Position numbers and translations under genes: made by a program
Origin: Escherichia coli
GTDB lineage: Bacteria > Pseudomonadota > Gammaproteobacteria > Enterobacterales > Enterobacteriaceae
NCBI RefSeq assembly: GCF_030013205.1
Contig: NZ_CP122648.1
Length of the DNA: 64,000 nucleotides
Reading direction: 5' to 3' (one strand)
Shown here: piece by piece, positions 21,104 through 64,000 of the stretch
Numbering within the stretch: position 1 is the stretch's first letter
How the letters are laid out: every line of letters begins with the position of its first letter
Notes under the pieces: model-generated
What the model saw: the letters and a program-made list of their open reading frames with translations, nothing else
What the model was told of the DNA's origin: nothing
The model's database searches: none

Positions 21104-22342
21104 ATGGCTGACACTCGCCCTGAACGTCGCTTTACGCGCATTGATCGTCTCCCGCCCTACGTTTTTAATATTACCGCTGAACTGAAAATGGCTGCGCGTC
21201 GGCGCGGCGAAGATATTATCGATTTCAGTATGGGTAACCCGGACGGTGCGACTCCGCCGCACATCGTCGAAAAATTATGTACGGTGGCCCAGCGCCCGGA
21301 CACGCATGGTTACTCCACTTCACGCGGCATTCCGCGGCTACGTCGCGCCATTTCACACTGGTATCAGGATCGCTACGACGTCGAGATCGACCCGGAATCA
21401 GAAGCCATCGTCACCATTGGTTCGAAAGAGGGACTGGCGCATCTGATGCTGGCGACGCTGGATCATGGTGACACTGTACTGGTGCCTAATCCAAGCTACC
21501 CGATTCATATTTACGGCGCGGTGATTGCCGGGGCGCAGGTACGCTCAGTGCCGCTGGTGGAAGGTGTCGATTTCTTCAACGAACTGGAACGCGCCATTCG
21601 CGAAAGTTATCCGAAACCGAAGATGATGATCCTCGGCTTCCCGTCGAACCCAACCGCGCAATGCGTGGAACTGGAATTCTTTGAGAAGGTTGTGGCGCTG
21701 GCGAAACGATACGATGTGCTGGTGGTCCATGACCTGGCCTATGCCGATATCGTCTACGATGGCTGGAAAGCGCCGTCAATCATGCAGGTGCCGGGTGCAC
21801 GCGATGTGGCGGTCGAGTTCTTTACGCTGTCGAAAAGCTACAACATGGCGGGCTGGCGTATCGGCTTTATGGTTGGCAACAAAACGCTGGTCAGCGCGCT
21901 GGCACGTATTAAAAGCTATCACGATTACGGCACCTTTACGCCGTTGCAGGTGGCAGCGATTGCGGCGCTGGAGGGCGATCAACAGTGCGTGCGCGATATT
22001 GCCGAACAGTACAAACGCCGCCGTGATGTACTGGTTAAAGGGCTGCATGAAGCGGGCTGGATGGTCGAAATGCCGAAGGCTTCGATGTATGTCTGGGCGA
22101 AAATCCCGGAACCGTATGCTGCCATGGGCTCGCTGGAATTTGCCAAGAAGCTGCTGAACGAAGCGAAGGTCTGTGTCTCTCCGGGGATTGGCTTTGGCGA
22201 CTACGGCGACACGCATGTTCGCTTTGCACTGATTGAAAACCGCGACCGTATTCGTCAGGCGATTCGTGGAATTAAAGCGATGTTCCGTGCCGACGGTTTA
22301 CTACCCGCCAGCAGCAAACATATTCACGAAAACGCGGAATAA
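21104..22342 (+). CDS. alaC: Glutamate-pyruvate aminotransferase AlaC (YfdZ)
   Basis: 412 aa, class I PLP aminotransferase motifs (…[16 protein letters not shown]…). Confidence 0.9.
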
Positions 22343-40921: not shown

Positions 40922-41140
40922 TTAGATGATAAATGACAGCAGGAATGTGCCCGCCAGAGCGACGACTGAAGCGATAAATGTCGCTGTCGTATAGTATTTA
41001 AATGTTTCATTGAGCGTAGCGCCGCAATATTGCTTCACCAGCCAGAAAAGCGAGTCCGTAACGATCGTGCAGCCAATTGCACTTGAACCGATATCAATCG
41101 TAAAAATTTCCGGGCTGATGTCGGGATACAGCGCCAGCAC
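40922..41140 (-). pseudogene. dsdX: dsdX 3' fragment (D-serine permease, GntP family), truncated by the csc insertion
   Basis: Only about 72 C-terminal codons (…[60 protein letters not shown]) remain; sequence upstream switches abruptly to the cscR region. Confidence 0.75.
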
Positions 41141-41382
41141 AATGATCCATATTTATATTTTCTTCTCCAGATTGGCGATGCCAGTTGGCATGTTTTACCT
41201 ACTTGCCTACATGGTTACTCGTTGGCAAGAACAGAGGCGGAATTGGGTACAATTGTCCGGGAATTATTGTTATTTTTTATTGTATTGCCGTGTCGGGTGA
41301 TAGGGCGTCGAGAATATCGTTGGATCTCGCCAGTGACGTCTGTTTCTGCTACAGTGCCCGTTTTACGGCAAACGGCTTGGGT

Positions 41383-42378
41383 ATGGCTTCATTAAAGGAT
41401 GTCGCACGCCTGGCGGGAGTGTCGATGATGACAGTCTCCCGGGTGATGCATAATGCAGAATCTGTGCGTCCTGCAACGCGTAACCGCGTATTGCAGGCAA
41501 TCCAGACCCTGAATTATGTTCCTGATCTTTCCGCCCGTAAGATGCGCGCTCAAGGACGTAAGCCGTCGACTCTCGCCGTGCTGGCGCAGGACACGGCCAC
41601 CACTCCTTTCTCTGTTGATATTCTGCTTGCCATTGAGCAAACCGCCAGCGAGTTTGGCTGGAATAGTTTTTTAATCAATATTTTTTCTGAAGATGACGCT
41701 GCCCGCGCGGCACGTCAGCTGCTTGCCCACCGTCCGGATGGCATTATCTATACTACAATGGGGCTGCGACATATCACGCTGCCTGAGTCTCTGTATGGTG
41801 AAAATATTGTATTGGCGAACTGTGTGGCGGATGACCCAGCGTTACCCAGTTATATCCCTGATGATTACACTGCACAATATGAATCAACACAGCATTTGCT
41901 CGCGGCGGGCTATCGTCAACCGTTATGCTTCTGGCTACCGGAAAGTGCGTTGGCAACAGGGTATCGTCGGCAGGGATTTGAGCAGGCCTGGCGTGATGCT
42001 GGACGAGATCTGGCTGAGGTGAAACAATTTCACATGGCAACAGGTGATGATCACTACACCGATCTCGCAAGTTTACTCAATGCCCACTTCAAATCGGGCA
42101 AACCAGATTTTGATGTTCTGATATGTGGTAACGATCGCGCAGCCTTTGTGGCTTATCAGGTTCTTTTGGCGAAGGGGGTACGTATCCCGCAGGATGTCGC
42201 CGTAATGGGCTTTGATAATCTGGTTGGCGTCGGGCATCTGTTTTTACCGCCGCTGACCACAATTCAGCTTCCACATGACATTATCGGGCGGGAAGCTGCA
42301 TTGCATATTATTGAAGATCGTGAAGGGGGAAGAGTGACGCGGATCCCTTGCCCGCTGTTGATCCGTTGTTCCACCTGA
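41383..42378 (+). CDS. cscR: Sucrose operon repressor CscR (LacI family)
   Basis: MASLKDVARLAGVSMMTVSRVMHNAESVRPATRNRVLQAIQTLNYVPDLSARKMRA... HTH plus periplasmic-binding-like domain; start placed at the internal Met (331 aa). Confidence 0.85.
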   Translation: MASLKDVARLAGVSMMTVSRVMHNAESVRPATRNRVLQAIQTLNYVPDLSARKMRAQGRKPSTLAVLAQDTATTPFSVDILLAIEQTASEFGWNSFLINIFSEDDAARAARQLLAHRPDGIIYTTMGLRHITLPESLYGENIVLANCVADDPALPSYIPDDYTAQYESTQHLLAAGYRQPLCFWLPESALATGYRRQGFEQAWRDAGRDLAEVKQFHMATGDDHYTDLASLLNAHFKSGKPDFDVLICGNDRAAFVAYQVLLAKGVRIPQDVAVMGFDNLVGVGHLFLPPLTTIQLPHDIIGREAALHIIEDREGGRVTRIPCPLLIRCST

Positions 42379-42385
42379 TATTATG

Positions 42386-43819
42386 TTAACCCAGTTGCCA
42401 GAGTGCTCCATGTTGCAGCACAGCCACTCCGTGGGAGGCATAGAGCGACAGTTCCCGTTCTTCTGGCTGCGGATATATTCGGCTACTCATCACCGCCTCC
42501 CCGTCGTTAATAAATACTTCCACGGATGATGTATCGATAAATATCCTTAGGGCGAGCATGTCACCCTGCGGGAGGGGAATACTACGGTAGCCATCTAAAT
42601 TCTCGTGTGGGTAATACCGCCACAAAACAAGTCGCTCAGATTGGTTATCAATATACAGCCGCATTCCAGTGCCGAGCTGTAATCCGTAATGTTCGGCATC
42701 ACTGTTCTTCAGCGCCCACTGCAACTGAATCTCAACTGCTTGCGCGTTTTCCTGCAAAACATATTTATTGCTGATTGTGCGGGGAGAGATAGATTGATGC
42801 TGCTGGCGTAACGACTCAGCTTCGTGTACCGGGCGTTGTAGAAGTTTGCCATTGCTCTCTGATAGCTCGCGCGCCAGCGTCATGCAGCCTGCCCAGCCTT
42901 CACGTTTTGAGGGCATTGGCGATTCCCACATATCCATCCAGCCGATAACAATACGCCGACCATCCTTCGCTAAAAAGCTTTGTGGTGCATAAAAGTCATG
43001 CCCGTTATCAAGTTCAGTAAAATGCCCGGATTGTGCAAAAAGTCGTCCTGGCGACCACATTCCGGGTATTACGCCACTTTGAAAGCGATTTCGGTAACTG
43101 TATCCCTCGGCATTCATTCCCTGCGGGGAAAACATCAGATAATGCTGATCGCCAAGGCTGAAAAAGTCCGGACATTCCCACATATAGCTTTCACCCGCAT
43201 CAGCGTGGGCCAGTACGCGATCGAAGGTCCATTCACGCAATGAACTGCCGCGATAAAGCAGGATCTGCCCCGTGTTGCCTGGATCTTTCGCCCCGACAAC
43301 CATCCACCATGTGTCGGCTTCACGCCACACTTTAGGATCGCGGAAGTGCATGATTCCTTCTGGTGGAGTGAGGATCACACCCTGTTTCTCGAAATGAATA
43401 CCATCCCGACTGGTAGCCAGACATTGTACTTCGCGAATTGCATCGTCATTACCTGCACCATCGAGCCAGACGTGTCCGGTGTAGATAAGTGAGAGGACAC
43501 CATTGTCATCGACAGCACTACCTGAAAAACACCCGTCTTTGTCATTCTCGTCTCCTGGCGCTAGCGCAATAGGCTCATGCTGCCAGTGGATCATATCGTC
43601 GCTGGTGGCATGTCCCCAGTGCATTGGCCCCCAGTGTTCGCTCATCGGGTGATGTTGATAAAACGCGTGATAACGATCGTTAAACCAGATCAGGCCGTTT
43701 GGATCGTTCATCCACCCGGCAGGAGGCGCGAGGTGAAAATGGGGATAGAAAGTGTTACCTCGGCGCTCGTGAAGTTTTGCTAGTGCGTTTTGCGCCGCAT
43801 GTAATCGAGATTGCGTCAT
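42386..43819 (-). CDS. cscA: Sucrose-6-phosphate hydrolase / invertase CscA (GH32)
   Basis: GH32 motifs (HLAPPAGWMNDPNG; FRDP; WECPD). Confidence 0.88.
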   Translation of the reverse strand: MTQSRLHAAQNALAKLHERRGNTFYPHFHLAPPAGWMNDPNGLIWFNDRYHAFYQHHPMSEHWGPMHWGHATSDDMIHWQHEPIALAPGDENDKDGCFSGSAVDDNGVLSLIYTGHVWLDGAGNDDAIREVQCLATSRDGIHFEKQGVILTPPEGIMHFRDPKVWREADTWWMVVGAKDPGNTGQILLYRGSSLREWTFDRVLAHADAGESYMWECPDFFSLGDQHYLMFSPQGMNAEGYSYRNRFQSGVIPGMWSPGRLFAQSGHFTELDNGHDFYAPQSFLAKDGRRIVIGWMDMWESPMPSKREGWAGCMTLARELSESNGKLLQRPVHEAESLRQQHQSISPRTISNKYVLQENAQAVEIQLQWALKNSDAEHYGLQLGTGMRLYIDNQSERLVLWRYYPHENLDGYRSIPLPQGDMLALRIFIDTSSVEVFINDGEAVMSSRIYPQPEERELSLYASHGVAVLQHGALWQLG

Positions 43820-44034
43820 TTTTATCATCCTGGTTAAGCAAATTTGGTGAATTGTTAACGTTAACTTTTATAAAAATAAAGTCCCTTACTTTCATAAATG
43901 CGATGAATATCACAAATGTTAACGTTAACTATGACGTTTTGTGATCGAATATGCATGTTTTAGTAAATCCATGACGATTTTGCGAAAAAGAGGTTTATCA
44001 CTATGCGTAAGTCAGATGAATTTAAGGGAAAAAA

Positions 44035-44958
44035 ATGTCAGCCAAAGTATGGGTTTTAGGGGATGCGGTCGTAGATCTCTTGCCAGAATCAGACGGGCGG
44101 CTACTGCCTTGTCCTGGCGGCGCGCCAGCTAACGTTGCGGTGGGAATCGCCAGATTAGGCGGAACAAGTGGGTTTATAGGTCGGGTCGGTGATGATCCTT
44201 TTGGTGCGTTAATGCAAAGAACGCTGCTAACTGAGGGTGTCGATATCACGTATCTGAAGCAAGATGAATGGCACCGGACATCCACGGTGCTTGTCGATCT
44301 GAACGATCAAGGAGAACGTTCATTTACGTTTATGGTCCGCCCCAGTGCCGATCTTTTTTTAGAGACGACAGACTTGCCCTGCTGGCGACATGGCGAATGG
44401 TTACATCTCTGTTCAATTGCGTTGTCTGCCGAGCCTTCGCGTACCAGCGCATTTACTGCGATGACGGCGATCCGGCATGCCGGAGGTTTTGTCAGCTTCG
44501 ATCCCAATATTCGTGAAGATCTATGGCAAGACGAGCATTTGTTCCGCTTGTGTTTGCGGCAGGCGCTACAACTGGCGGATGTCGTCAAGCTCTCGGAAGA
44601 AGAATGGCGACTTATCAGTGGAAAAACACAGAACGATCGGGATATATGCGCGCTGGCAAAAGAGTATGAGATCGCCATGCTGTTGGTGACTAAAGGTGCA
44701 GAAGGGGTGGTGGTCTGTTATCGAGGACAAGTTCACCATTTTGCTGGAATGTCTGTGAATTGTGTCGATAGCACTGGGGCGGGAGATGCGTTCGTTGCCG
44801 GGTTACTCACAGGTCTGTCCTCTACGGGATTATCTACAGATGAGAGAGAAATGCGACGAATTATCAATCTCGCTCAACGTTGCGGAGCGCTTGCAGTAAC
44901 AGCGAAAGGGGCAATGACAGCGCTGCCATGTCGACAAGAACTGGAAGGTGAGAAGTAA
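44035..44958 (+). CDS. cscK: Fructokinase CscK (PfkB/ribokinase family)
   Basis: 307 aa, MSAKVWVLGDAVVDLLPE...; DTTGAGDAF-type motif (DSTGAGDAFVAG). Confidence 0.88.
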   Translation: MSAKVWVLGDAVVDLLPESDGRLLPCPGGAPANVAVGIARLGGTSGFIGRVGDDPFGALMQRTLLTEGVDITYLKQDEWHRTSTVLVDLNDQGERSFTFMVRPSADLFLETTDLPCWRHGEWLHLCSIALSAEPSRTSAFTAMTAIRHAGGFVSFDPNIREDLWQDEHLFRLCLRQALQLADVVKLSEEEWRLISGKTQNDRDICALAKEYEIAMLLVTKGAEGVVVCYRGQVHHFAGMSVNCVDSTGAGDAFVAGLLTGLSSTGLSTDEREMRRIINLAQRCGALAVTAKGAMTALPCRQELEGEK

Positions 44959-45019
44959 ACGGCGAGGCCGCTCTTATCTCTAAATAGGACATGAATTTTT
45001 TAACGACAGGCAGGTAATT

Positions 45020-46267
45020 ATGGCACTGAATATTCCATTCAGAAATGCGTACTATCGTTTTGCATCCAGTTACTCATTTCTCTTTTTTATTTCCTGGTCG
45101 CTGTGGTGGTCGTTATACGCTATTTGGCTGAAAGGACATCTAGGATTAACAGGGACGGAATTAGGTACACTTTATTCGGTCAACCAGTTTACCAGCATTC
45201 TATTTATGATGTTCTACGGCATCGTTCAGGATAAACTCGGTCTGAAGAAACCGCTCATCTGGTGTATGAGTTTCATTCTGGTCTTGACCGGACCGTTTAT
45301 GATTTACGTTTATGAACCGTTACTGCAAAGCAATTTTTCTGTAGGTCTAATTCTGGGGGCGCTCTTTTTTGGCCTGGGGTATCTGGCGGGATGCGGTTTG
45401 CTTGACAGCTTCACCGAAAAAATGGCGCGAAATTTTCATTTCGAATATGGAACAGCGCGCGCCTGGGGATCTTTTGGCTATGCTATTGGCGCGTTCTTTG
45501 CCGGTATATTTTTTAGTATCAGTCCCCATATCAACTTCTGGTTGGTCTCGCTATTTGGCGCTGTATTTATGATGATCAACATGCGTTTTAAAGATAAGGA
45601 TCACCAGTGCATAGCGGCGGATGCGGGAGGGGTAAAAAAAGAGGATTTTATCGCAGTTTTCAAGGATCGAAACTTCTGGGTTTTTGTCATATTTATTGTG
45701 GGGACGTGGTCTTTCTATAACATTTTTGATCAACAACTCTTTCCTGTCTTTTATGCAGGTTTATTCGAATCACACGATGTAGGAACGCGCCTGTATGGTT
45801 ATCTCAACTCATTCCAGGTGGTACTCGAAGCGCTGTGCATGGCGATTATTCCTTTCTTTGTGAATCGGGTAGGGCCAAAAAATGCATTACTTATCGGTGT
45901 TGTGATTATGGCGTTGCGTATCCTTTCCTGCGCGTTGTTCGTTAACCCCTGGATTATTTCATTAGTGAAGCTGTTACATGCCATTGAGGTTCCACTTTGT
46001 GTCATATCCGTCTTCAAATACAGCGTGGCAAACTTTGATAAGCGCCTGTCGTCGACGATCTTTCTGATTGGTTTTCAAATTGCCAGTTCGCTTGGGATTG
46101 TGCTGCTTTCAACGCCGACTGGGATACTCTTTGACCACGCAGGCTACCAGACAGTTTTCTTCGCAATTTCGGGTATTGTCTGCCTGATGTTGCTATTTGG
46201 CATTTTCTTCCTGAGTAAAAAACGCGAGCAAATAGTTATGGAAACGCCTGTACCTTCAGCAATATAG
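45020..46267 (+). CDS. cscB: Sucrose:H+ symporter CscB (oligosaccharide:H+ symporter MFS)
   Basis: 415 aa 12-TM MFS, LacY-like. Confidence 0.88.
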   Translation: MALNIPFRNAYYRFASSYSFLFFISWSLWWSLYAIWLKGHLGLTGTELGTLYSVNQFTSILFMMFYGIVQDKLGLKKPLIWCMSFILVLTGPFMIYVYEPLLQSNFSVGLILGALFFGLGYLAGCGLLDSFTEKMARNFHFEYGTARAWGSFGYAIGAFFAGIFFSISPHINFWLVSLFGAVFMMINMRFKDKDHQCIAADAGGVKKEDFIAVFKDRNFWVFVIFIVGTWSFYNIFDQQLFPVFYAGLFESHDVGTRLYGYLNSFQVVLEALCMAIIPFFVNRVGPKNALLIGVVIMALRILSCALFVNPWIISLVKLLHAIEVPLCVISVFKYSVANFDKRLSSTIFLIGFQIASSLGIVLLSTPTGILFDHAGYQTVFFAISGIVCLMLLFGIFFLSKKREQIVMETPVPSAI

Positions 46268-58650: not shown

Positions 58651-59808
58651 TCACTCCACCTTTTCATCAATCCAGTCCGCCCACCACTGCATCATCTCCC
58701 GGCGCTTATCGAGATACTGAGCATGGTTGTAAATCCCGCGCACAGATCCGCCGTTGGCATGTGCCAGTTGCACTTCAATAGCATCAGCAGGCCATTCGTG
58801 CTCGTTCATAATCGTGCTGAATTCATGCCTGAATCCGTGACCGCTTTCCAGACCTTCATAGCCGATTTGTTTGATCACAAGCAGTACAGCGTTCTCGCAG
58901 ATTGGCTTCTTCTTATCGTTGCGCCCGGCAAAAACAAACTCTGATACTGGTTTAGTGATTGAGCTTAGTGTAGTGAGAAGTTCAACCACCTGGTCTGACA
59001 TCGGGACAACATGAATTTTGCGTCCCTTCATCACACTGGCGTCGATGGTGATAATCCTGTTTTCAAAATCGACGTTCTTCCATAGCATGGAACGAAGCTC
59101 TTTTGTTCTTAGGGCTGTGTAGCGTAAAACTTTGGTCGCAATGAGCGATACGATACTTCCTGAAAATGTTGCAAGTGCTTTGTTGAATGCCGGGATCTGG
59201 TCGGCAGGTAAAAACGGGAAGTTCTTCTTGCGGTATCCCTTCATGGCGTCAGCAAGGTCAGGTGCCGGGTTATATTTAGCCCTACCAGTAACAATAGCGT
59301 AACGGAAAACCTCGCCGCATCTTCTGCGTGCTTTGTTGGCTCGCTCCATTGCACCGCGATCTTCAAATCTGCGGATTACTTCCAGAAGTTGCATCGGCTC
59401 AATATCCTGAATTTCAAGGCCGCCGATGATAGGTAAAATGTCGTCATCAAACATTTTTGCAAGTTCATTTGCATAGCCTACTGACCAGACTTGCTTCTTG
59501 TGCTCGTACCATTCCTTGTAAATGGCGCTAAAGGAATTGTTGTTAGACGAAGCCTTTTTCGCCTTTACCGGATCGATGCCAACCGAGATGTCTTTCCTCG
59601 CAGTCCATGCTTTATCCCTTGCCTCTTGCAAAGTCATAAGCGGATATTTTCCGACGGTCAGGATTTTCTCCTTACCGTCAATCTTGTAGCGAAGCTGCCA
59701 TACCTTTTTCCCTGATACAGGGACATAAAGATACAGGCCATTACCATCGAGTAGGCGGTATGGTTTTTCTTTCGGCTTTGCTGCTTCAATCTGCTTAACG
59801 GTGAGCAT
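58651..59808 (-). CDS. intS: P4-type tyrosine integrase (IntS-like, N-terminal DUF4102 arm-binding domain)
   Basis: MLTVKQIEAAKPKEKPYRLLDGNGLYLYVPVSGKKVWQLRYKIDGKEKILTVGKYP…; catalytic R…HxxR…Y region near the C-terminus; start at internal Met of ORF 58651-59844. Confidence 0.88.
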   Translation of the reverse strand: MLTVKQIEAAKPKEKPYRLLDGNGLYLYVPVSGKKVWQLRYKIDGKEKILTVGKYPLMTLQEARDKAWTARKDISVGIDPVKAKKASSNNNSFSAIYKEWYEHKKQVWSVGYANELAKMFDDDILPIIGGLEIQDIEPMQLLEVIRRFEDRGAMERANKARRRCGEVFRYAIVTGRAKYNPAPDLADAMKGYRKKNFPFLPADQIPAFNKALATFSGSIVSLIATKVLRYTALRTKELRSMLWKNVDFENRIITIDASVMKGRKIHVVPMSDQVVELLTTLSSITKPVSEFVFAGRNDKKKPICENAVLLVIKQIGYEGLESGHGFRHEFSTIMNEHEWPADAIEVQLAHANGGSVRGIYNHAQYLDKRREMMQWWADWIDEKVE

Positions 59809-59969
59809 GGGTAAAAATCCGGTGGGTAAAATTATTTTATCCACTTTTTACCCGTCATGGAGTGCGGCTGTCAACGATCTGACGCGAACCATGACGAACC
59901 GTGAATATACGGAAGGCTTGATATTCAGGGTATTTTGCGGACTGGTACGGATGGGAGCGAACTGATAAA

Positions 59970-59988
59970 TGGTGTCCCTGCAGAAATC
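59970..59988 (-). repeat. Degenerate att-core repeat derived from the argW 3' end
   Basis: tggtgtccctgcagaaatc versus the reverse complement of the argW 3' end tggtgtcccctgcaggaatc (one deletion, one mismatch); no tRNA body. Confidence 0.5.
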
Positions 59989-60205: not shown

Positions 60206-60454
60206 ATGCGCACACAGGTTGTATTGCAAAAATGGGGTAACAGCATTGCCCTTCGACTAACGGGAAACCTTAAAACCGTTCCGGGTTTTTCAGTGGGTGA
60301 TATCGTCAACGTTGAAATTAGTGAAAAAGGGCTTTTTGTAGAAAAGCCTGCACGCCGTCGCCTGAGTGAAGCCGAACTACTCGCCGGGATAACGCCAGTT
60401 ACAGCGCACGCTGACGAAATTGCCACCCCATTCAATGAGGAGGTTGATTACTGA
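60206..60454 (+). CDS. MazE/PemI-like antitoxin (AbrB/SpoVT-type swapped-hairpin)
   Basis: 82 aa, MRTQVVLQKWGNSIALRLTGNLKTVPGFSVGDIVNVEISEKGLFVEKP…; RBS aggag; stop overlaps the toxin start (TGATG). Confidence 0.75.
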   Translation: MRTQVVLQKWGNSIALRLTGNLKTVPGFSVGDIVNVEISEKGLFVEKPARRRLSEAELLAGITPVTAHADEIATPFNEEVDY

Positions 60455-60798
60455 TGTTTGTACCTAAGCGTGGTGATATTTGCTGGCTGGATTTTGAGCC
60501 GCAGAAAGGAAAAGAGATCGGAAAGTATCGCCCGGCACTCATACTATCCCATGAGCAATATAACCGACTCACCGGGCTTGTCATATGCTGCCCCATAAGT
60601 ACGAGCATACGAAATGCTCCCACAGAAGTTCCGGTAACAAATCTGGACGCCCCCAGCGTGGTAGCAACCACACTCATTCAAACCCTTGACTGGCGTCAGC
60701 GGAAAGCGCGCTTAATCACAGAGGCAGAAGATGGGGTATTTAATGATGTGCTTGAAAGAGTCATTACTCTGATTGGTGGAGAGCATCTGCTTAAGTAA
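60454..60798 (+). CDS. MazF/PemK-family endoribonuclease toxin
   Basis: 114 aa, MFVPKRGDICWLDFEPQKGKEIGKYRPALILSHEQYNRLTGLVICCPISTS…; translationally coupled to the upstream antitoxin. Confidence 0.75.
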   Translation: MFVPKRGDICWLDFEPQKGKEIGKYRPALILSHEQYNRLTGLVICCPISTSIRNAPTEVPVTNLDAPSVVATTLIQTLDWRQRKARLITEAEDGVFNDVLERVITLIGGEHLLK

Positions 60799-60841: not shown

Positions 60842-62113
60842 CTATTCTTTCCAGTCAATCCCATCCAGTAAGCACCCTGCCTCATATTGCCCCACCACCC
60901 AGTCAAGGTTACAGGACTCATAGAACGCGAGGCGATTATACTGAGGCTCGTTTTTTACCAGGCCACGAACGGAACCACGCTGCCAGTACAGACACAGATT
61001 GGCAAGAGGTGTGATCAATACAGCATTGTCCGGGAAAAATGGAACGGTCACAGCCGGGAGATTCCCCAGAACGGGATTTTTAATGATTTCCTCGTTAAGC
61101 AAAATTTCCTGATTCATCTGCGATGGATCAAGACGGTTTATCAAAGGCCATTGTTTACGGACCAGCGTATTGTGACTGCATACGGCCACAATGCCTTCCT
61201 GCCACTGTTCATCAATCATGGATTGCCAGGCATCCAGAACGAGCGCATCTATCGTATGGTGTGTACCGCGTATATTACTTTTCGGTGATGAGACAGAAAG
61301 GCCGCTGATAACCCTTCCCGCCGCTTCATTTCGAAACTTCTGCAACCAGCCCACGCCGCAATCGTCACGCCCCGGATATGTTCCGGGATCTGATACATCG
61401 GCATAGTGCGTACCGTTAAAACCAATCTGAATCAAATCCAGCCATTTCTGGCGTTCAAAAGCAGCCCGGGCGCTTCCTTCAAGACCGTTTGCGGATGCGT
61501 GAGCATCAACATTGTCGTAGTTCAGCGCAAAATCAAAATTAACCTGCTCGCAGCGGTAGCCCCTTGAAACCAGTGAATGCGCCTGTAGTGGCGAGCGGCG
61601 CTCGTGAGGTGGCGATGTACGTGCTAACGGCCCCGAAGCGTCTACCAGCACAACCTGACCTGATATATCCGTAACAGGCACGGGAGTTATTTCAGCAAGG
61701 AAATTTGCCTGCCATCCACTGGCAAGCGTTGCACTCTGGCGGGGGACGGGTTCAACTTCTGACGAATAGCGCGCAGTGTCACCGGAAAAGTGCAAATCCT
61801 TCGGATGCTTTCCGGTTATCGACTCGATAGCGCAATTGAAAACCATCTGAGACTGTTGATTTCGTTGTGATACAACAGAATCAGCAGTGCAATTATAACG
61901 CTCAATGCCGTCGTTATTACCCCCACCGCTTGCAGTATGCAGGGTGTGAAGCTCAAGCTCACGCTCCAGTTTTTGATATTCATTGTCCAGCGCGCGACGC
62001 GTCTCATCGCTTATGCTTGCTGTGTTTGCTTTCAGGCGATTCCGGGACATTAATCCCCTGAGTCGGCTCACTATATCAGCGCCGTGCAAATGTGGAGTAT
62101 TCAGACCGCCCAT
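60842..62113 (-). CDS. P2-family major capsid protein-like (GpN-like), tentative
   Basis: Segments (…CEQVNFDF…, …IGFNG…GVGWLQKFRNEA…, …LGNLPAVTVPFFPDNAVLITPLANL…YESCNLDWVVGQYEAGCL…) resemble remembered P2 GpN; start placed at the Met whose ATG overlaps the upstream gene's stop; listed ORF extends to 62254. Confidence 0.5.
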   Translation of the reverse strand: MGGLNTPHLHGADIVSRLRGLMSRNRLKANTASISDETRRALDNEYQKLERELELHTLHTASGGGNNDGIERYNCTADSVVSQRNQQSQMVFNCAIESITGKHPKDLHFSGDTARYSSEVEPVPRQSATLASGWQANFLAEITPVPVTDISGQVVLVDASGPLARTSPPHERRSPLQAHSLVSRGYRCEQVNFDFALNYDNVDAHASANGLEGSARAAFERQKWLDLIQIGFNGTHYADVSDPGTYPGRDDCGVGWLQKFRNEAAGRVISGLSVSSPKSNIRGTHHTIDALVLDAWQSMIDEQWQEGIVAVCSHNTLVRKQWPLINRLDPSQMNQEILLNEEIIKNPVLGNLPAVTVPFFPDNAVLITPLANLCLYWQRGSVRGLVKNEPQYNRLAFYESCNLDWVVGQYEAGCLLDGIDWKE

Positions 62114-62823
62114 TACTGCCACCCCCGGCAGAGTTCTCTGCCCTCCGCAAGGTCGCGCATTTTTTCTGGATTCTGTCGCGCCGCGCTCCATTGTACAGGT
62201 GAAGGGGCGCTCCTGATTGCGCAGCTTACTGAATCCGGGAGTTTCTCCGGGCAATAACGCAGCGGGCTGGAGGTGTCGCTTTCGGTATCGTTAATCCGGC
62301 CGCGAATCATCCCGACACTTTCAGCAGTATCTGCCGCTTTCAGTGTTTCGCATATTTTCTTTTCTGCGTTATACAGCGGCTGGCCAAGTAGCTCACATAA
62401 ACCACGAATCAATAACAGAACAGGGGTCAGCTCGTTAATCAGTTCGGGAAGTGCTTTTGCAAATATCTCTGCCCGCAACTTATTATCAATGCTTTCGTAA
62501 GCACAACCAGCCTCTGCCGCGTTATAACGACACTCCAGTAGCCTGATGCGCGCTTCATCATGCAATACCCGCAGACGCTCAAGATTTTCTCGCGCCACAC
62601 CCGCCTGAATGGATAATTTCGCGGAGGCTTCCGTTTTTACGCCCAGCGCAGACAGGATTGAGTTCTGCCAGTCACGATCGAGAGATTCCAGCTCCCCTTT
62701 CGTCTGTTCGATAGTCGCTTCCAGATTGGTGATTAATGATTCCTGTTCACTGAGTTTTGCCATGGCTGTATCAAACTGTGCTTTACATACCTGATGTTCG
62801 GCGCTTGCCTGAGTTATATCCAT
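62113..62823 (-). CDS. Coiled-coil phage morphogenesis protein (scaffold/Sid-like), tentative
   Basis: 236 aa, helical N-terminus; immediately upstream of and translationally coupled (ATGA) to the capsid-like gene. Confidence 0.35.
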   Translation of the reverse strand: MDITQASAEHQVCKAQFDTAMAKLSEQESLITNLEATIEQTKGELESLDRDWQNSILSALGVKTEASAKLSIQAGVARENLERLRVLHDEARIRLLECRYNAAEAGCAYESIDNKLRAEIFAKALPELINELTPVLLLIRGLCELLGQPLYNAEKKICETLKAADTAESVGMIRGRINDTESDTSSPLRYCPEKLPDSVSCAIRSAPSPVQWSAARQNPEKMRDLAEGRELCRGWQ

Positions 62824-62949
62824 TATTTGCTCCTGTAATACATTTTTTTACTTACGCCGATTTTTTCCATATTGCGTAATACATTCCAGCCGATTTTGTT
62901 CTCGTAATACGCTCACAATACTGTTGTATTACGCTTTCTTATATCGCGG
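62824..62949. promoter_or_regulatory. Divergent intergenic control region with repeated GTAATACATT / CGTAATAC motifs
   Basis: gtaatacatt at 62835-62844 and 62876-62885; cgtaatac at 62903-62910; gtattacg at 62926-62933; gccgatttt repeated twice. Confidence 0.5.
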
Positions 62950-63222
62950 GTGTTAAATCCCGGCATAAACAATCAGGGAGGCAACACGATGAAAAAACAA
63001 AAGAAAATGCGATGCGTATTACGCTGTATTCGTATCCCGCACGAAATCGACCATAAAATAAATCAGATATGTGAGGACAGAGAGATGAACTACTCCCAGT
63101 GCGTCAGAATGTTTATCAGTCAGGGAATTAAGGCCGGGGAAAAGCAGGAAGAAGACCACAACGGGCGCAATGTAGCGGGGGATGTGTGGGCCTGGGCAAA
63201 TGACCAGAACCACACGACGTAA
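62950..63222 (+). CDS. Small ribbon-helix-helix-like DNA-binding protein, tentative
   Basis: …MRCVLRCIRIPHEIDHKINQICEDREMNYSQCVRMFISQGIKAG… fits a beta-strand then helix-helix RHH pattern; true start may be the Met at 62989. Confidence 0.4.
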   Translation: MLNPGINNQGGNTMKKQKKMRCVLRCIRIPHEIDHKINQICEDREMNYSQCVRMFISQGIKAGEKQEEDHNGRNVAGDVWAWANDQNHTT

Positions 63223-63272
63223 TACAGAAATAACGCAGCCGGTCACACTCGCTGGCTGTGTTATACAAATCA

Positions 63273-63455
63273 CTATGAAGTTTTCGACTTCCTGCGCTTA
63301 GTAATGCGTACAAACGACTCAAGCGTACAAAAACAAGCCCCACACTCAATATTGTTGCACTGGTAATACGTTCTGTAGATGTTTTGTTCGTGTTCTTCCA
63401 ACGAACGACCACGGGTGCGAGCTGAAGCGCCACAGGCCGGGCAAGGGAAAGACAT
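63273..63455 (-). CDS. ogr: Ogr/Delta-family zinc-finger late-gene activator
   Basis: 60 aa, CPACG…YYQCNNIECGACFCTLESFVR matches the Ogr C2C2 pattern. Confidence 0.7.
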   Translation of the reverse strand: MSFPCPACGASARTRGRSLEEHEQNIYRTYYQCNNIECGACFCTLESFVRITKRRKSKTS

Positions 63456-63745
63456 ATCGCGCTCCTCTTACTGGCGTGAAATTTAACCTATTATATCTTC
63501 CGTTGCCTCCTCTGGCTGTATCAAATAAATCCGCGATGGTCGCTGCGTATTACGCGCAGACACACCGTTCCCATGCTCACTCCTCACATTCCCCGTATCA
63601 ATTCTCTCTTGCCGTAAGAACGGCTCTGGCTGGCGATAAAACTAACCCGGTCAGGCATTCCCGCAGTCTTTAGCGAAAGATGTAATTTACCCCCTGAAAC
63701 GCGGGCTGTTCCCCCGTCACCTGCGCGCGAAAAACTCACCGTTTT

Positions 63746-63844
63746 TTGTGCACGCACGAAATCGCCCTCCGGGCGCGCCAGTACCGGGCCGGATGGGCAA
63801 AAAGTTACTCTAAAAAATTGTGCAAATTTGTGCACTTTTGTGCA
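63746..63844. repeat. Phased TTGTGCA direct repeats (4 copies, last 3 spaced 10 bp)
   Basis: ttgtgca at 63746-63752, 63818-63824, 63828-63834 and 63838-63844. Confidence 0.5.
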
Positions 63845-64000
63845 GATGAACAACAGCGTCAAAAAGAGTGCTTTTGAGAGATTTTTTATGGCAACTGCGC
63901 CGCGTGTATTACGTTTTTACCATCCCCGCCGCGCATGTACATACTTCATTTTTCTGCCAAACAACAGGGCAACTCCCCGTGACTGACAGCCCCAAAAAAT

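Follow-up and report, generated by a model that had tools for sequence, protein, structure and literature searches.

The stretch of Escherichia coli DNA analysed here (64,000 nucleotides, hereafter the window) carries, between positions 60842 and 63455, four genes coding for a capsid-like protein of 423 amino acids (aa), a 236-aa protein related to Sid of phage P4, a 77-aa ribbon-helix-helix (RHH)-like protein and a 60-aa protein of the Ogr/Delta type. The open reading frame (ORF) listing and the RefSeq annotation concur on all four genes, the annotation and the extension past the window being taken from record NZ_CP122719.1 (E. coli ETEC1748, a pig isolate), which is 100% identical to the window; window position 64000 corresponds to position 22151 of this extended locus (L001). 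Both sources agree with the placement of the four genes in the sequence-only reading, an earlier interpretation of the window made without database searches, and the toxin-antitoxin (TA) pair and island edge which that reading had set beyond the capsid-like gene are likewise found, as a MazE/MazF pair and a partial copy of the 3' end of a tRNA-Arg gene (Table 1). Similarity to other argW-integrated copies of the element begins exactly at this partial copy, which forms the junction with an adjoining CPS-53-type prophage remnant, while the intact tRNA-Arg is located 12.7 kb from it, outside the window. The four genes very probably belong to an integrative phage satellite of 12.7 kb, of which they would form the late module, devoted to head morphogenesis.

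Table 1. Features of the late module and its surroundings, in window coordinates
Feature	Position	Strand	Remarks
Capsid-like gene	60842-62113	-	423 aa
Sid-like gene	62113-62823	-	236 aa
Divergent promoter region, Sid-like/RHH-like	62824-62988		
Small RHH-like gene	62989-63222	+	77 aa; same position and orientation in 7/7 loci compared
Ogr/Delta-type gene	63273-63455	-	60 aa
MazE-like antitoxin; MazF/PemK toxin	60206-60454; 60454-60798	+	PF02452, E 4e-25; phrog_4324
Satellite end	59970-59988		Partial copy TGGTGTCCCTGCAGAAATC of the tRNA-Arg (argW) 3' end
Predicted P88-type cos-like packaging site	63685-63850		Core GGCTGTTCCCCCGTCACC at 63704-63721

The identity of the 423-aa protein as a full-length homologue of the P2 capsid protein GpN, with the HK97 fold, is firmly supported. 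It matches the Pfam family PF05125 (Phage_cap_P2; E 7e-73, 246 bits) and the PHROG major head protein family (E 5e-76), and BLASTP aligns its residues 86-419 with residues 3-340 of P2 GpN at 34% identity, so that a complete GpN-type protein is preceded by ~85 extra N-terminal residues. The AlphaFold model (mean predicted local distance difference test score, pLDDT, 76) displays an HK97 body, with gpN in the P4 procapsid (7jw1_B, E 8e-28) and then the capsid protein of phiRSA1, a P2-like phage, as its best matches in the Protein Data Bank (PDB). The capsid assignment, which in the sequence-only reading had rested on motif recognition, is thereby upheld at the levels of protein family, alignment and predicted structure. 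In the model, the N-terminal extension folds into a helical hairpin (residues 11-29 and 36-60; pLDDT 73-90), to which a disordered linker (residues 61-83) is attached, and no homologue of the hairpin was found in the GpO proteins of P2 or P88, nor in the PDB. The residues that are invariant across the P2 family are retained, and the C-terminal tail of GpN is absent. P4 Sid contacts the sir loop of gpN (residues 183-224; PMC7552001), and the corresponding region is several residues shorter in the satellite capsids and incorporates a clade-specific motif, SGLSVSS, features that would fit co-evolution with a cognate Sid. The start codon of the capsid-like gene overlaps the stop codon of the Sid-like gene (ATGA), and the former is predicted on this basis to be translationally coupled to the latter.

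The satellite capsids form a clade distinct from those of phages. Identity of the 423-aa protein to every capsid in the phage collection lies between 34 and 39%, with none exceeding 39%. Its close relatives in a large protein database (268-927 bits, 42-51% identity, 360-497 aa) are encoded in Escherichia, Salmonella, Klebsiella, Erwinia, Pectobacterium and Symbiopectobacterium, with ordinary P2-family capsids scoring at most 206 bits as against at least 268 bits for the satellite group. The split between satellite capsids and phage capsids, the latter drawn from beta- and gammaproteobacteria, was recovered in 200/200 neighbour-joining bootstraps of the core alignment, and mean identity is 37% between the two groups and 58% among the phage capsids. 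The TIGR01551 equivalog model gave 131.6 bits, below its cut-off of 219.65, as compared to 315.5 bits for P2 GpN. The ratio of non-synonymous to synonymous substitution rates (dN/dS) of the capsid-like gene ranges from 0.08 to 0.19. The length of the linker is very variable across the clade, and in some E. coli variants (L014 10001-11425; P0009, P0010 and P0013) it is lengthened by tandem Ser/Ala-rich repeats (SSARTASS.HSE.GEFS...), resulting in proteins of 451-497 aa.

No Pfam family is matched by the 236-aa protein. Six of the eight members of its family match phrog_6165 (best E 4.6e-5); as P4 Sid matches this group over its full length (6e-116), phrog_6165 can be taken as the Sid family despite its 'Psu-like' label. 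An alignment of the 236-aa equivalents from seven divergent loci, compared with P4 Sid using hhalign, gave an E-value of 0.002 over 106 colinear columns, with a DW...GV motif common to both. The AlphaFold model (pLDDT 92.8) is all-helical, and Sid in the P4 procapsid was the first match when it was compared with 350,542 PDB chains using Foldseek. It is concluded that the protein is a distant homologue of P4 Sid, with a predicted function as an external size-determining scaffold. The gene had been called scaffold-like in the sequence-only reading, and while this holds in the sense of an external scaffold homologous to Sid, an internal scaffold of the GpO type was rejected on the basis of the lack of a match to PF05929 or any other Pfam family and an hhalign E-value of 0.71 against P2 GpO. 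Homology to Psu was similarly rejected (hhalign E 0.41), Psu also being a weaker fold match than Sid. The family is small, with an exhaustive profile search of 1.8 billion representatives recovering only ~20 members at E <1e-10 and a word-seeded search with the 236-aa protein returning near-identical E. coli proteins only. The dN/dS values of the Sid-like gene range from 0.13 to 0.36.

The 60-aa protein consists of one zinc-finger domain of the Ogr/Delta type (PF04606, E 3e-11), in agreement with the earlier description of the gene as Ogr-like, and belongs to phrog_603, which is matched by P4 Delta at 6e-67. The RHH gene of the same description is also present, and its assignment is a weak one, with RHH_5 matches in 3/7 members (best E 0.0025); the 77-aa product is probably a ribbon-helix-helix regulator. 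The classical Ogr/Delta site of P2 late promoters is the dyad TGT-N12-ACA. No perfect copy was found in the window's own Sid-like promoter, and perfect dyads occur at the matching place in two relatives (L008 and L010). The heptamer GTATTAC is found several times (once inverted) between 62828 and 62935 on the minus strand, twice paired with AAAATCGGC, while at the equivalent place the Salmonella relative L008 contains TGTATTAC repeats. These two sets of promoter repeats are possibly operator sites for the RHH-like protein. The Sid-like/capsid-like operon can be expected to be activated by the Ogr protein of either the satellite or its helper.

Past the end of the window, the element continues with a non-coding stretch, a second tyrosine recombinase, a primase-helicase, small ORFs, an Icd-like ORF, AlpA and an integrase, and terminates at the tRNA-Arg. 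The integrase (420 aa; L001 29352-30614, outside the window), which adjoins the tRNA, comprises Arm-DNA-bind_3, Phage_int_M and Phage_integrase domains and shares 52.5% identity with P4 Int. AlpA (PF05930, E 5.5e-17) is 36% identical to P4 ORF88. The Rfam families C4 (RF01695; 79.7 bits, gathering score 45) and isrK (52.1 bits) were matched, also outside the window, and the Icd-like ORF overlaps the C4-type RNA. The primase-helicase (889 aa) combines a zinc ribbon, a Toprim domain and a P-loop, and shows only local BLAST similarity to P4 alpha (E 6e-4); the primases of the relatives contain Zn_Ribbon_Prim, Toprim_3 and DUF927 domains, and P4 alpha D5_N/Pox_D5. When the P4-like components Int, Psu, Delta, Sid, AlpA, Epsilon and Alpha (Moura de Sousa and Rocha) were scored, Int, Delta, Sid and AlpA were found, and Psu and, in this copy, Epsilon were not. 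None of the proteins of the element matched PF07455 (P4 Psu itself, 1e-88) and tblastn with P4 Psu was empty, the capsid paralogue occupying the place after sid. Proteins of the epsilon family (PF25738) are present in the relatives L012 and L013.

The element was further queried by tblastn with the portal, large terminase and GpO proteins of P2 and P88, GpM and GpL of P2, and Sid, Psu, Delta, epsilon and cII of P4. Only the capsid, integrase and AlpA genes were recovered, together with the marginal primase match. Across the 12.7 kb, genes for portal, terminase, GpO, GpM and GpL were found neither by tblastn nor in the annotation, there are none for a small terminase, prohead protease or head-tail connector, and no tail genes are annotated, tail proteins not being among the tblastn queries. 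The relatives likewise lack P2 head and tail genes around the capsid-like gene. This gene content points to a P4-style satellite backbone and not to a prophage, and the extended sequence does not contain the complete, ordinary P2-like prophage that would have contradicted the sequence-only reading.

Two further features of the backbone lie close to the primase gene. The second tyrosine recombinase (~330 aa, Int_N and Phage_integrase domains, Xer-like; L001 22782-23783), situated directly after the primase, is also encoded in L002, L003, L006, L010 and L014 and is absent from L008, L012 and L013; one possibility is that it resolves multimers of a plasmid form. Beside the primase-helicase, an AT-rich stretch (L001 22190-22540) with dense GGTTACA/TGTAACC iteron-like repeats, bracketed by an inverted repeat (GGGGTGCGGAAACGGGTTACAAAGGTTACA...), is likely to be the replication origin of the satellite.

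Of 5426 complete E. coli genomes, 56 (~1%), many of them from pigs and cattle, contain the capsid/Sid-like pair at 95-100% identity, and it is intact in 55 of these. Integration has occurred at argW and also between hpt and gcd, in the latter case with a different integrase. Comparison with loci in Klebsiella, Salmonella, Erwinia, Pectobacterium and other E. coli lineages (42-51% protein identity) revealed a constant order, which starts with integrase, AlpA and small ORFs, continues with primase, a variable slot, Ogr/Delta and the ~77-aa gene on the opposite strand, and ends with the ~240-aa gene, the capsid-like gene, another variable slot and then host genes. The variable slots contain MazEF, HicAB, Hok, AIPR, UDG or restriction-modification and GmrSD systems, with MazEF here, and Hok, UDG or restriction-modification and GmrSD in relatives, in the slot that separates the capsid-like gene from the attachment site. 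MazEF follows the capsid-like gene in both the E. coli element and the Salmonella relative (L008 11450-12033), in opposite relative orientation, which suggests independent acquisition or an inversion within the slot.

The sequence-only reading had left a choice between a satellite carrying its own capsid gene and a heavily deleted P2-like prophage, and had noted that the arrangement fits neither P2 nor P4. This last observation stands, as does the satellite. A decayed prophage, of which the capsid and Ogr genes would be leftovers beside a P4-like island, has only a very slim chance of being correct. Both genes do belong to P2 families and there is a degraded prophage in the neighbouring DNA, yet that remnant is of the unrelated P22/CPS-53 type and lies beyond the attachment-site remnant. 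The neighbourhood comparison proposed with that reading shows the four-gene order in five genera and at several integration sites without any other P2 structural gene, nearly all E. coli copies are intact, and the capsid clade is not nested within the phage capsids. Recurrence over five genera, different attachment sites and purifying selection thus all argue against decay of a P2 prophage.

The cos site of P2 and P4 is absent from the element, both when searched as a 19-mer with up to three mismatches and by blastn of the P4 cos junction, and a different cos was therefore looked for. A single non-coding block of ~150-160 bp, 250-400 bp from ogr, is 70-80% conserved in all seven divergent loci, with flanks that cannot be aligned. 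It is ~80% identical to a non-coding stretch of P88 and related Peduoviridae in the phage collection, among them Xuanwuvirus and phages of Klebsiella, Enterobacter and Citrobacter, and its P88 counterpart occupies the place of cos in P2, ~300 nt beyond the portal gene. The satellite and P88 have a perfect block of 44 nt in common, and the core GCGCGCAGGTGACGGGGGAACAGC-CCGCG aligns on the P4 junction GCGGGCG/GGCGAGGCGGGGAAAGCAC/CGCG. The motif TTGTGCA, which occurs at chance frequency over the whole window, is found four times within 100 bp (63746-63844), three of these at an exact spacing of 10 bp (63818, 63828 and 63838), and the repeats are kept in P88 and in all family members. The block is read as a putative P88-type cos, with cohesive termini predicted within GGTGACGGGGGAACAGCC and the TTGTGCA repeats as candidate terminase (cosB-like) binding sites.

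It is improbable that this 160-bp element instead has a shared regulatory function, encodes a small RNA or serves as a replication origin, with the satellite moved by other means. Such a role would accord with the viral contigs, whose ends near the core have no single exact terminus in common, and with the short ORFs annotated across the block in some records. Against it stand the position just past the portal gene, the base for base alignment of the core on the cohesive ends and flanks of P2/P4 cos, and the phased repeats, which appear to resemble terminase-binding sites; furthermore, an Rfam scan covering the block found no RNA family, and a candidate iteron-like origin is located elsewhere.

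Given the presence of a P88-type cos and the absence of the P2/P4 cos, the helper is predicted to be P88-like and not P2. Viral contigs with the 22-mer core were inspected, the first 80 being read. A P88-type portal gene (68-100% identical) lies near the core in 71 of these, and none for portal, terminase or capsid was detected in the available stretch of the other nine. Co-occurrence was assessed with a chimeric query joining the satellite gene pair to part of the P88 portal gene, an extra match being inferred to represent a portal gene; such a match was obtained in 37/56 satellite genomes and in 19% of the others (odds ratio 8.1, Fisher p 5e-14, many of the strains being clonally related). 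The length of the element is 35.6% that of P88 (35.8 kb), similar to the 34.6% of P4 relative to P2, and small P4 capsids hold ~12 kb (PMC9122126). P88 itself (L015 11551-11781) encodes a protein of the PF25738 'derepression' (P4 epsilon) family (E 1e-7), which is unexpected for a helper and may be of interest with regard to satellite-helper or phage-phage conflict.

In its size of ~12 kb, tRNA integration, P4-type integrase, AlpA, C4-type immunity RNA with an Icd-like ORF, zinc-ribbon/Toprim primase-helicase, Ogr/Delta protein, Sid homologue, helper-copied cos and variable defence/TA slots, the element resembles P4. It differs in the lack of Psu and the possession of a GpN-type capsid gene, P4 being stated to have none (PMC9122126). 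The late module is at the far end from the integrase, with Delta upstream of Sid and the divergent RHH-like gene between them; Delta has 60 aa and a single domain as opposed to two domains in P4. Sid is recognisable only by profile and fold, the primase has another helicase part and marginal BLAST similarity, the cos is of P88-type and not P2-type, and epsilon is not detectable in this copy. The element can with high confidence be regarded as a P4-related satellite of a separate lineage that parasitises P88-like (Xuanwuvirus) helpers.

Other satellites with capsid homologues are already known, namely SaPIbov5 with Ccm, PmCI172, EcCICFT073 and the capsid-forming phage-inducible chromosomal islands (cf-PICIs). 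Ccm is encoded by SaPIbov5, a cos-type pathogenicity island of Staphylococcus aureus, and is a capsid homologue found at the pentons of small capsids (PMC8569155). Like the protein described here, it is a diverged homologue of the HK97-fold capsid protein of the helper and occurs together with a helper-type cos, with the link to small capsids shown for Ccm and predicted here. The lineage, host and helper family are unrelated, however, and Ccm has no external scaffold, whereas the present capsid is coupled to a Sid homologue. The Gram-negative PICIs EcCICFT073 and PmCI172, the latter of which makes small capsids (PMC6092414), and the cf-PICIs are similarly chromosomal islands with integrase, AlpA, primase and a major capsid homologue. 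Since capsid and scaffold-type proteins are encoded here and cf-PICIs exist in E. coli, a fully capsid-forming satellite, making complete heads and taking only tails from the helper, was also considered, but scarcely any credence can be given to it. While cf-PICIs carry portal, protease, connectors and small terminase, the 12.7-kb element has only a capsid and an external scaffold; the capsid belongs to the P2 family and is matched by that of a cf-PICI (EcCI2) at the level of general fold only (E 9e-9, 13% identity), regulation is of the Ogr/Delta type and the cos is that of the helper. In relation to the GpN proteins of P2, 186, P88 and phiRSA1, the satellite capsid shares the Pfam family, the HK97 fold and an alignment over the whole GpN body. 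It is set apart by the extra N-terminal hairpin and linker, the shortened sir loop, the missing C-terminal tail and its separate clade, and its gene is not part of a head operon with GpO and terminase.

A satellite cycle can be proposed on these grounds. During the lytic cycle of a P88-like helper, the Ogr protein of the helper and/or the Ogr-like protein of the satellite would switch on the Sid-like/capsid-like operon. The satellite capsid protein would then form small, roughly T=4-sized shells, either as the whole shell or at specific positions such as pentons, with the cognate Sid-like protein as the external cage. The helper would contribute its portal, GpO protease/scaffold, terminase, proteins for head completion and tails, and its terminase would recognise the P88-type cos of the satellite and package the 12.7-kb genome. 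The N-terminal extension of the capsid protein would probably serve as a built-in assembly (delta-like) domain and be removed at maturation. The odds are slightly in favour of the capsid paralogue being a structural part of the small capsids of the satellite. A more specific version, in which the entire small shell is made from the satellite's own GpN paralogue and Sid cage, the N-terminal hairpin is a built-in delta-like scaffold or portal adaptor, and the helper gives only portal, protease, terminase, head completion proteins and tails, is put forward tentatively, as less likely to hold than to fail.

Alternatively, the capsid paralogue, alone or together with the Sid-like protein, may act only in interference, as a dominant-negative poison subunit that would co-assemble with the head proteins of the helper or titrate them and so block its multiplication, to the benefit of the host or the satellite, and not as a building block of satellite particles. 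Interference with the assembly of helper capsids is common among satellites, and a role of this kind has been considered for capsid homologues (PMC8569155, PMC6092414); moreover, the paralogue is far from all phage capsids and below the equivalog cut-off, as would be seen after a change of function, and it adjoins cargo slots of the defence type. This explanation is nonetheless considered unlikely, given that the whole HK97 body and the residues invariant in the P2 family are kept under strong purifying selection and that the paralogue is apparently coupled in translation to a homologue of Sid, a known builder of small shells. With a helper-type cos and a genome of T=4 size, the satellite would need small capsids in any event. 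The two roles are not mutually exclusive, as Ccm both interferes and is structural.

Several observations weigh against a structural role in small capsids mobilised by a P88-like helper. Satellites were not encountered among the 80 core-bearing viral contigs, which are fragments of helper-type phages instead, and the four IMG/VR contigs that contain the element are, judging by their identifiers, seemingly isolate genomes and not viromes. No P88-like portal gene was detected in 19/56 carrier genomes, and the co-occurrence statistic ignores clonal relatedness. In ETEC1748 the chimeric query gave two matches, the second of which is presumably a P88-like portal gene. As the capsid protein is only 35% identical to that of P88, the predicted helper, its compatibility with the helper portal, protease and head-completion proteins is assumed, and as the N-terminal extension lacks a detectable homologue, the role given to it is a guess. 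The dyad in the Sid-like promoter is an imperfect one of the Ogr type, TGT-N12-AGA (one mismatch; 62917-62900, minus strand), ~85 nt upstream of the Sid-like start codon. Finally, the 99-aa protein at the position expected for epsilon has neither a PF25738 domain nor similarity to the epsilon proteins of P4 or L013.

P4 is the textbook example of a satellite without structural genes that reshapes the capsid of its helper by means of Sid, and surveys of P4-like satellites describe them as devoid of capsid genes (e.g. PMC9122126). In the literature searched, no P4-like element was found to be credited with a capsid gene, with most subscription journals and the supplements of PMC8628076 outside its coverage. 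The lineage described here has kept Sid and Delta, dropped Psu and gained a private, long-diverged capsid paralogue, and appears tuned to another helper genus through its P88-type cos. Should the paralogue be structural, a continuum within one satellite lineage would have capsid piracy at one end and capsid autonomy at the other, and the Sid-like and GpN-like proteins would provide a compact two-gene system for studying the control of shell size by an external scaffold. If, furthermore, it forms the whole shell, the element would be a living intermediate between capsid-stealing (P4) and capsid-forming (cf-PICI) satellites, in which a Sid-type scaffold can co-evolve with a private capsid and not with that of the helper. 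The genes are currently labelled 'P2 family phage major capsid protein' and 'hypothetical protein'; with such labels, and with Sid and the primase too diverged for BLAST, these elements may go unnoticed by programs that search for prophages and satellites, or be filed wrongly as remnants of prophages.

Positions 52584-59844 of the window comprise a degraded CPS-53/KpLE1-type (P22-like) prophage, with which the satellite forms a tandem at argW. The prophage encodes IntS, GtrA, a membrane protein with DUF2142 and a glycosyltransferase, an unusually ordered set for O-antigen modification, and contains truncated terminase and gp4 genes. Its tailspike gene is split by an IS1 element (53750-54447) into a head-binding domain (53065-53422) and the remainder (54489-55790). 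At positions 40922-46267 there are a truncated dsdX and, between dsdA and the prophage remnant, a cluster for sucrose utilisation made up of cscA and genes for a LacI-family regulator, a kinase and an MFS transporter.

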